A DNA stretch of 64,000 nt from Escherichia coli (GCF_003334785.1 NZ_QOWV01000001.1), one strand, 5' to 3'. Counted from the stretch's first letter, positions 47,892 to 48,972 are shown. A program made the numbers and translations. The notes: generated from the letters alone by a model not told the origin.

Positions 47892-48118
47892 TGGCTGATG
47901 CAATGGATCTCGTACAGCAGCGCGTTGAAGAAGAACGCCAGCGCCATATCCGTGCAGCCCGTGCCAAATCACCGGGCGTGTCACGCGTACTTTGCATTGA
48001 ATGTGAAGCGCCAATTCCGCCAGCACGACGCCGCGCCATTCCGGGAGTGCAGCTTTGCATTACCTGTCAGGAAATCGCAGAACTGAAAGGCAAACATTAC
48101 AACGGAGGTGCTGTATGA
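47891..48118 (+). CDS. TraR/DksA-family C4 zinc-finger protein
   Basis: 75-aa ORF with CIECEAPIP...CITCQ four-cysteine motif; translationally coupled to neighbours. Confidence 0.75.
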   Translation: MADAMDLVQQRVEEERQRHIRAARAKSPGVSRVLCIECEAPIPPARRRAIPGVQLCITCQEIAELKGKHYNGGAV

Positions 48119-48972
48119 GCACCATCCTGAAATGGGCGGGAAATAAAACCGCCATTATGCCAGAACTGAAAAAATACCTTCCTGCTGGCCCGCGACTGGT
48201 TGAACCTTTCGCGGGTTCCTGTGCTGTGATGATGGAAACGGATTATCCCAGCTATCTGGTTGCGGATATTAATCCTGATTTAATCAACCTCTATAAAAAG
48301 GTTGCCGCTGATTGTGAATCGTTTATATCTCGCGCCAGAGTTTTATTTGAGATCGCAAACAGGGAGGTGGCTTATTACAACATAAGGCAGGAGTTTAACT
48401 GCTCAACTGAAATTACTGATTTCATGAAAGCGGTATATTTCCTGTATCTCAATCGTCACGGTTACCGTGGTTTATGTCGCTATAACAAGAGCGGGCATTT
48501 CAACATTCCCTACGGTAATTATAAAAATCCGTATTTCCCTGAAAAAGAACTTCGTACATTTGCAGAAAAAGCCCAGCGAGCAACGTTTATCTGCGCCAGC
48601 TTTGATGAAACGCTGGCGATGTTGAAGGCGGGAGATGTGGTGTATTGCGATCCGCCATATGACGGTACGTTTTCCGGCTATCACACTGATGGTTTCACTG
48701 AAGATGACCAGTATCACCTGGCATCCGTTCTTGAACATCGGTCATCAGAAGGACATCCGGTCATTGTTTCTAACAGTGACACATCCCTGATCCGTTCGCT
48801 GTATCGCAATTTTACTCACCACTATATCAAGGTAAAACGCAGCATCGGTGTGGCAGCTGGCGAGGGTAAATCAGCAACAGAAATCATTGCTGTTTCCGGG
48901 CCGCGCTGCTGGATGGGATTTGATTATTCGCGTGGCGTGGATAGTTCTGCCGTGTACGGAGTACGTGCATGA
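48115..48972 (+). CDS. DNA N6-adenine methyltransferase, Dam/D12 class
   Basis: 285-aa product starting [11 protein letters not shown] with SAM-binding FAGSCAV and catalytic DPPY motif; GGAGGTG RBS. Confidence 0.85.

Follow-up and report, generated by a model that had tools for sequence, protein, structure and literature searches.

Does a methyltransferase gene carried by a prophage change the DNA methylation of its Escherichia coli host, or does it duplicate a mark that the host already makes? The question is raised by an adenine methyltransferase gene, hereafter dam, found in a 64,000-nucleotide stretch of E. coli DNA (NZ_QOWV01000001.1; hereafter the window), where it sits in a P2/186-like prophage inserted beside rcdA (ybjK). 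The function of phage Dam enzymes 'is still not well understood', according to one review (PMC7556043). The reading that we consider very probable is that dam encodes a GATC-specific N6-adenine methyltransferase from a branch of the Dam family that is old and carried by phages, and that the gene is an intact, repressed passenger whose activity would be redundant with that of host Dam.

The dam gene and the prophage remnant around it

The dam protein matches the Pfam model PF02086 (MethyltransfD12) over its full length (E 2.5e-75; model 1-253/253, query 7-244), the phage family phrog_56 (DNA methyltransferase, E 1.5e-122) and the structure of E. coli Dam (EcoDam), PDB 2G1P (E 3e-73; query 4-263 against EcoDam 7-270). 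The match to the D12 class is far beyond chance, and the motifs follow the order of that class, with an FxGxG-type AdoMet loop, a central recognition region and a C-terminal DPPY. Against NCBIfam TIGR00571, which describes Dam family site-specific DNA-(adenine-N6)-methyltransferases, the protein scores 318.4 bits, well over the cut-off of 114.85. Its score against NF008152, the chromosomal Dam equivalog, is 287.3 bits, and because this falls under the equivalog cut-off of 441 we assign the gene as a phage paralogue and not as host Dam. The top PADLOC model is the orphan methyltransferase, oMTase (E 1.6e-110). No endonuclease gene was found beside dam, either in the 11.6-kb remnant or in its intact relatives. 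The locus is thus not a Type II restriction-modification system, in which a matching endonuclease would be adjacent; it holds a solitary (orphan) methyltransferase gene flanked by TraR/DksA and gpA. Both flanks overlap dam. The ATG of dam (48115-48117) shares an ATGA with the TGA (48116-48118) of the TraR/DksA-like ORF, and on the 3' side the TGA that ends dam (48970-48972) shares bases with the ATG (48969-48971) of the gpA-derived ORF. Coordinates of all features are collected in the table, in which those of the upstream early operon (46064..47891) were carried over from the RefSeq annotation of NS-NP030 at an offset of +39299.

Table. Features of the prophage remnant and of dam, in window coordinates.
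Feature	Position	Strand	Basis or remark
14-bp direct repeat AACAAAAAACCCAT, candidate att core	42452..42465 and 54039..54052		tentative; repeat short
Integrase	42540..43592	-	
PD-Lambda-1 / DUF4041 defence gene, 558 aa, between integrase and cI	43675..45351	-	PADLOC PDLC03976, E 2.4e-120
cI repressor, 198 aa, intact	45372..45968	-	RefSeq transfer, PHROG
Candidate early lytic promoter, TTGACA-17-TAGTAT, 10/12 matches	45962..45990	+	consensus match; function inferred from position
apl/cox, early operon	46064..46285	+	RefSeq NS-NP030 transfer, PHROG
cII, early operon	46318..46827	+	RefSeq NS-NP030 transfer, PHROG
fil, early operon	46835..47131	+	RefSeq NS-NP030 transfer, PHROG
DUF5347, early operon	47249..47590	+	RefSeq NS-NP030 transfer, PHROG
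DUF2732, early operon	47658..47891	+	RefSeq NS-NP030 transfer, PHROG
TraR/DksA-type zinc-finger gene, 75 aa	47891..48118	+	phrog_54, E 1.6e-30
Shine-Dalgarno GGAGG, 6 nt 5' of dam ATG, within end of TraR/DksA-like gene	48104..48108	+	sequence read directly
dam, Dam-family D12-class alpha-group N6-adenine DNA methyltransferase, intact	48115..48972	+	285 aa + stop
Motif I / AdoMet-binding loop FAGSCAV, aa 32-38	48208..48228	+	
DNA-recognition beta-hairpin, aa 116-137	48460..48525	+	gapless alignment to EcoDam 118-139
Motif IV, catalytic DPPY, aa 179-182	48649..48660	+	invariant in both alignments
In-frame gpA/tape-measure chimera, 1034 aa	48969..52073	+	BLAST vs Cartapus, PHROG
gpU, surviving late gene	52070..52555	+	
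gpD, surviving late gene	52552..53652	+	
ogr, surviving late gene	53710..53961	+	probable start 53743

The remnant is placed between rcdA and a host ORF of 561 residues on the minus strand (54197..55882), and over positions 30000-46000 the window matches several complete E. coli genomes at 100% identity. In a BLAST comparison with the complete phage Cartapus, window 47249..50270 aligned with Cartapus 27528..30548, running from the early operon into gene A, and window 50269..53648 with Cartapus 19116..22495, which covers the middle of the tape-measure gene, U and D. Cartapus position 30548 is therefore joined to 19116 in the window, at a junction near 50270, with about 22 kb deleted. In the resulting chimera residues 2-434 are the N-terminal half of the origin-nicking gpA (phrog_91, profile 16-401/852) and residues 435-1034 are the C-terminal half of the tape measure (phrog_28 and phrog_5690). 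The deletion has taken the remainder of A, cos, and the genes for head, lysis, baseplate, fibre, sheath and tube; what is retained is int with the defence gene, the switch that governs immunity, the dam-containing early operon, and T'-U-D-ogr. With gpA cut short and joined to tape-measure sequence, and with about 22 kb gone, the prophage is a dead remnant that can neither replicate nor form particles. The exact gpA/tape-measure junction was found as one aligned piece in none of 5426 complete E. coli genomes.

These results bear out much of what a sequence-only reading of the locus had proposed. It had called a complete D12-class methyltransferase with FAGSCAV and DPPY, which the 285-residue ORF and the PF02086 match confirm; its placement of the gene between a TraR-like gene and an A-derived ORF, translationally coupled on both sides, is upheld by the two overlaps, and its orphan status by the lack of an adjacent endonuclease gene here and in the relatives. 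The assignment to the early operon of a prophage remnant likewise agrees with the break in the Cartapus alignment and with the fusion of gpA to the tape measure. The comparison with dam genes of P2-like prophages, which that reading had suggested as a check, returned the same 858-nt gene in the same slot at 96-99.8% DNA identity.

Remnants of a similar kind occur elsewhere. In MS20649 (NZ_CP082087.1; L012 8172..11487) a remnant at ssrA has a DinI-like gene running directly into the tape-measure gene; it keeps the early operon, dam, A, T, U, D and ogr, and has none of the head, lysis or baseplate genes. In other E. coli, dam is fused to a gpD domain (PF02086 + PF05954; proteins P0006 and P0009). 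Loss of the late region, with the switch, dam and the T-U-D-ogr end retained, seems to be recurrent and to arise through independent deletions. The remnant studied here has also retained its defence cargo gene, the product of which is named in RefSeq as either a 'DUF4041 domain-containing' or a 'SNIPE associated domain-containing' protein; in Cartapus the slot holds a RES-domain gene instead. We considered whether dam and this nuclease-type gene, 3 kb away, might form a functional pair, and rejected the idea, as the two do not go together in Cartapus, where dam is present and that slot is filled by another gene.

The coding sequence of dam is intact. The protein is 100% identical (0 amino acid differences) to the copies in NS-NP030 and 'phage vB_EcoM-813R9', from which the gene differs by 1-2 synonymous nucleotides, and the NS-NP030 prophage occupies the same locus and is 99.9% identical. 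Against Cartapus the dN/dS of dam is 0.21, from which we take the family to be under purifying selection. Preservation of the gene within the remnant is explained most simply by a recent deletion.

The gene is also common. The 858-nt dam is present in 1239 of the 5426 complete E. coli genomes, about a quarter (1242 matching records), and in a spread sample of 12 of these 1242 records annotations for TraR/DksA and DNA adenine methylase were found in all 12 and for the replication endonuclease in 10. At the DNA level dam was found in 56 phage records, mostly Peduoviridae of Klebsiella, Salmonella and Escherichia; tblastn with the protein (E ≤ 1e-8) matched 942 phage records, and a protein search (E ≤ 1e-20) returned more than 6600 clusters, the top one with 4038 member sequences. 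Gene order around dam is the same in Cartapus, 813R9, NS-NP030, MS20649 and Klebsiella pneumoniae Kp52145. The slot before the replication gene is thus standard cargo space for dam in this group of P2/186-like phages, where the gene is already known and routinely annotated. The Ec67 paper of Hsu, Inouye and Inouye reportedly describes a protein of 285 residues, equal in length to the one studied here, and about 44% identical to E. coli Dam. That Dam methylase ORF belongs to the 186-related retron-Ec67 prophage (Hsu, Inouye and Inouye 1990, cited in PMC7826664), and a K. pneumoniae Fels-2-like prophage has been tabulated with the same operon, including an 858-nt dam and a 2415-nt gpA (PMC7826664).

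Recognition residues and the predicted target site

We aligned the dam protein with EcoDam and 13 relatives, which sets EcoDam against 14 phage-clade sequences; the relatives come from Escherichia, Salmonella, Klebsiella, Citrobacter, Edwardsiella, Cedecea, Cronobacter, Atlantibacter, Mixta and an Erwiniaceae bacterium. A second, four-way alignment set the dam protein and EcoDam beside a Dam of the T4 type and the Dam domain from a Dmt of the P1 type. Identity between the dam protein and EcoDam is about 48% from end to end, over 260 residues, and identity within the phage clade of the first alignment is 71-97%. Invariant across that alignment are F32 and G34 of the AdoMet loop, the acidic D51 after strand 2 and the DPPY at 179-182. 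The loop FAGSCAV aligns with EcoDam F35-V-G-A-G-S-V, and the second glycine of FxGxG is a cysteine in the dam protein and in the entire phage clade, and a leucine in the T4-like Dam.

The residues by which EcoDam reads its site are known from published work. The first base pair is read by K9 and Y138, the third is contacted by L122 and P134, and Y119 is intercalated between A and T; R124 touches the guanine of the fourth pair, where the R124A mutant loses discrimination (PMC4417163). EcoDam K9, Y119, L122, R124, P134 and Y138 correspond to K6, Y117, L120, R122, P132 and Y136 of the dam protein, and all six are invariant in the first alignment. EcoDam 108-185 aligns with the dam protein with zero gaps, and the hairpin reads G-Y117-R118-G-L120-C-R122-Y-N ... 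P132-Y-G-N-Y136-K137. Among the GATC-reading residues the sole altered contact is EcoDam N120, which is R118 here and near-invariant as arginine in the clade. In the four-way alignment this position is asparagine in the P1-like Dmt and serine in the T4-like Dam, with R124 invariant. Both T4 Dam and P1 Dam methylate GATC. As the N120 position already varies among GATC Dams, it is not a determinant common to all of them.

Because the protein shares about 48% of its residues with EcoDam, keeps the named contacts other than N120 and has a gapless hairpin, these comparisons strongly favour GATC as its predicted target, with high probability. In the mechanism that we propose, AdoMet would be held through motif I (F32-A-G34) and D51, and the hairpin of the EcoDam type would read GATC, with R122 on the fourth-pair guanine, L120 and P132 on the third pair, K6 and Y136 on the first, and Y117 intercalating. 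The target adenine would then be flipped into the DPPY pocket.

In the literature that could be searched we found no methylation results for the dam protein or for relatives of more than about 70% identity; PMC12455584 and bioRxiv 850248 concern host Dam only. M.EcoGV was set aside as evidence for the clade, since this 'Dam homolog', known from C227-11 and 95NR1, is located on Stx (lambdoid) prophages. The Cartapus genome was also considered as a source of functional hints. It contains 107 GATC sites against 111 (first-order) or 142 (second-order) expected, and a search of the same genome for clusters of at least 5 sites in 300 bp found none, so that avoidance or clustering of GATC gave no signal for or against.

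The phage clade also has a C-terminal tail of about 22 residues (264-285; window 48904..48969) that is absent from EcoDam. Its loose pattern, W.G.D...G.D.S...VRA, is kept across genera.

Expression, role and alternative readings

A single sigma-70-like site was found on the plus strand between cI and dam, and it lies in the cI/apl intergenic region, where switches of the P2/186 type have their early lytic promoter. The scan behind this result was a crude consensus search, with 4 sites found against 6.5 expected by chance, and is compatible with a weak internal promoter or read-through. Because this sole upstream plus-strand site adjoins an intact cI, dam is probably silent in the lysogen; it would be transcribed only when the switch flips, which we expect to be rare in the remnant. 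The region downstream of gene A in phage 186 carries an SOS-controlled antirepressor, and the DNA 3' of gene A is deleted in the remnant. Prophage methylase genes that have been assayed in E. coli lysogens are transcribed well under the level of host dam (PMC4659465; PMC5778455).

Just 3' of the early promoter-like site is a perfect 16-bp palindrome, GTACCCAATTGGGTAC (45998..46013), the half-site of which, TTGGGTAC, recurs at 45947..45954. Palindrome and half-site are probably operators of the cI/apl switch. The spacer of the promoter itself contains a GATC (45980..45983), through which Dam methylation could touch the switch.

On the reading that we favour, the branch would be fixed cargo of a Peduoviridae subgroup (Elveevirus, Fels-2-like), always placed between a TraR/DksA-like gene and replication gene A. 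The enzyme would be made, by translational coupling, only from the early lytic transcript, which would start at the cI-side promoter and be shut off by the CI repressor in the lysogen. Its task in the lytic cycle may be to keep fast-replicating phage DNA fully GATC-methylated if host Dam is limiting, or in low-Dam hosts. Fully methylated progeny would resist GATC-cutting, methylation-sensitive enzymes of the MboI/DpnII type in the next host, and would not be handled by that host as unmethylated DNA. A role of this sort is what is usually assumed for phage Dams.

Could the gene instead encode something other than a second, GATC-specific Dam? It is possible to imagine a decaying relic without catalytic activity, given that the prophage is defective and that a cysteine replaces the second glycine of FxGxG. 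Yet the frame has neither frameshift nor stop, the catalytic and AdoMet motifs are all conserved, the protein is identical to the E. coli prophage copies at the same locus with a dN/dS of 0.21, and the glycine-to-cysteine change is common to the entire clade, with a leucine in the T4-like Dam; we regard a relic as extremely unlikely. Altered or relaxed specificity, in which the enzyme would accept GATC with near-cognate sites, or adenine in many contexts like Hia5, Hin1523 and Nme1821, is in our view very unlikely. Alpha-class phage methylases (FxGxG ... DPPY) without specificity do exist (PMC3299994; PMC5778455), and REBASE had no experimentally determined site for M.EcoMIV, another D12-class enzyme of an E. 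coli prophage (PMC4659465). The near-invariant R118 and the clade-specific tail could be taken in the same direction. However, in enzymes of the Hia5 type the recognition region, roughly residues 80-170, departs strongly from known structures (PMC3299994), whereas here it aligns to EcoDam without gaps and retains all six contacts, including the arginine whose loss relaxes reading of the fourth base (PMC4417163), and the N120 position varies among the aligned Dams anyway. Were relaxed specificity true and dam expressed, methylation would extend beyond that of host Dam and give broad protection against restriction. An identity as a Hia5/Hin1523-type alpha-class enzyme was rejected on the same EcoDam-like recognition region. 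We also rejected a non-specific enzyme like M.EcoGII, which is beta-class and has the reverse motif order, with an N-terminal DPPY, a central recognition region and a C-terminal AdoMet motif (PMC7544214; PMC5778455).

Leaky or internal transcription might, on the other hand, make the remnant dam a lysogenic-conversion factor, such that protected GATC sites become methylated, phase-variable or SeqA/MutH-dependent processes shift, or the mutation rate rises. A precedent is PamA, a prophage Dam-like enzyme that reprograms Staphylococcus aureus, a host without Dam (PMC13076061). Here conversion of the PamA kind is conceivable only through over-methylation. A Fels-2-like prophage with the same dam was amplified as the sole common change in colistin-evolved K. 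pneumoniae, where the link to dam is the authors' speculation (PMC7826664), and dam is intact in independently deleted remnants. Against conversion stand the intact cI, the lack of a plus-strand promoter-like site between the cI-proximal promoter and dam, the deletion of the region 3' of gene A, where phage 186 has its antirepressor, and the low transcription of prophage methylases in E. coli lysogens; recency is enough to explain intactness, in view of the identical protein and the 1-2 nucleotide differences from same-locus prophages. We consider conversion very unlikely. A link between dam and M.EcoMIV of E. coli EC958, a D12-class prophage methylase shown to be poorly transcribed (PMC4659465), was also considered, and the RT-PCR result for that enzyme was left aside as direct evidence for dam. 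Phi2 was not found in five stretches of NZ_HG941718.1; a different P2-like prophage, without a methylase, was found there.

A GATC-specific, repressed passenger remains the reading that we prefer, and it differs from the sequence-only reading on several points. That reading had held that the target could not be inferred, where identity to EcoDam and the conserved contacts strongly favour GATC. It had allowed for altered host methylation at GATC or other m6A sites; if the GATC prediction holds, dam would add no new motif, because host Dam, found in a syntenic position in every E. coli examined (PMC4659465), already makes this mark. Expression from the remnant, which it had entertained, appears unlikely given a sole promoter-like site next to an intact cI. 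Nor is the gene special to this locus, being standard cargo of the phage group. When methylomes or REBASE-style gene lists are read, the 'second Dam' of a P2-like prophage should then not be put forward to account for a motif that has no assigned enzyme. What benefit P2/186-like phages draw from a Dam of their own is a minor question, on which the remnant copy offers no special handle.

Either R118 or the clade tail could modify the behaviour of the enzyme relative to EcoDam. That the two together give the phage branch some property that host Dam lacks is a small chance, unlikely overall; possibilities would be a relaxed tolerance at the first base or in the flanks, activity on the rolling-circle intermediates of gpA, or a physical link to gpA. 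Such a property may explain why dam is coupled translationally to gene A in roughly one E. coli genome in four, and occasional derepression in remnants could then transiently over-methylate the host.

Comparison with known Dam systems

The closest counterparts are the Dams of P2/186-like phages (Peduoviridae), among them Cartapus gp42, annotated as 'Dam DNA adenine methylase', those of Klebsiella phages KP12 and 4LV2017, that of the Fels-2-like Kp52145 prophage and the Dam ORF of the retron-Ec67 prophage. The gene studied here is the same gene and has the same neighbours, the TraR/DksA-like gene on one side and gpA on the other, and stop and start codons overlap in the same way. The gene itself shows no meaningful difference; it is the surrounding phage that has lost about 22 kb.

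With EcoDam the protein shares the fold, the motif order and the AdoMet, catalytic and GATC-contact residues, N120 excepted. It differs in a deletion of five residues after DPPY, in the C-terminal tail of 22 residues and in having R118 for N120. The setting also differs, as dam lies in a repressed phage operon whereas EcoDam is encoded in the housekeeping dam operon.

T4 Dam and P1 Dmt resemble it in being solitary phage enzymes of the Dam family made in lytic growth, with R124, DPPY and the FxG of motif I in common. They are much more distant, the T4-like Dam being 22% identical and the P1-like Dmt 36%, and P1 Dmt is a two-domain fusion protein, unlike the dam protein here. In P1, Dam methylation acts in packaging at the pac site; we know of no such pac-type role of Dam methylation for P2-like phages.

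The non-specific phage methylases, of which Hia5, Hin1523 and Nme1821 are alpha-class and M.EcoGII and M.EcoGI beta-class, are similar in being prophage-borne, solitary and silent in the lysogen. M.EcoGII, which is encoded by a prophage of E. coli O104:H4, is silent there and has its DPPY at the N-terminus, modifies any adenine (PMC7544214; PMC5778455). In the Hia5 group the recognition region has diverged, whereas the dam protein described here has kept the hairpin of EcoDam.
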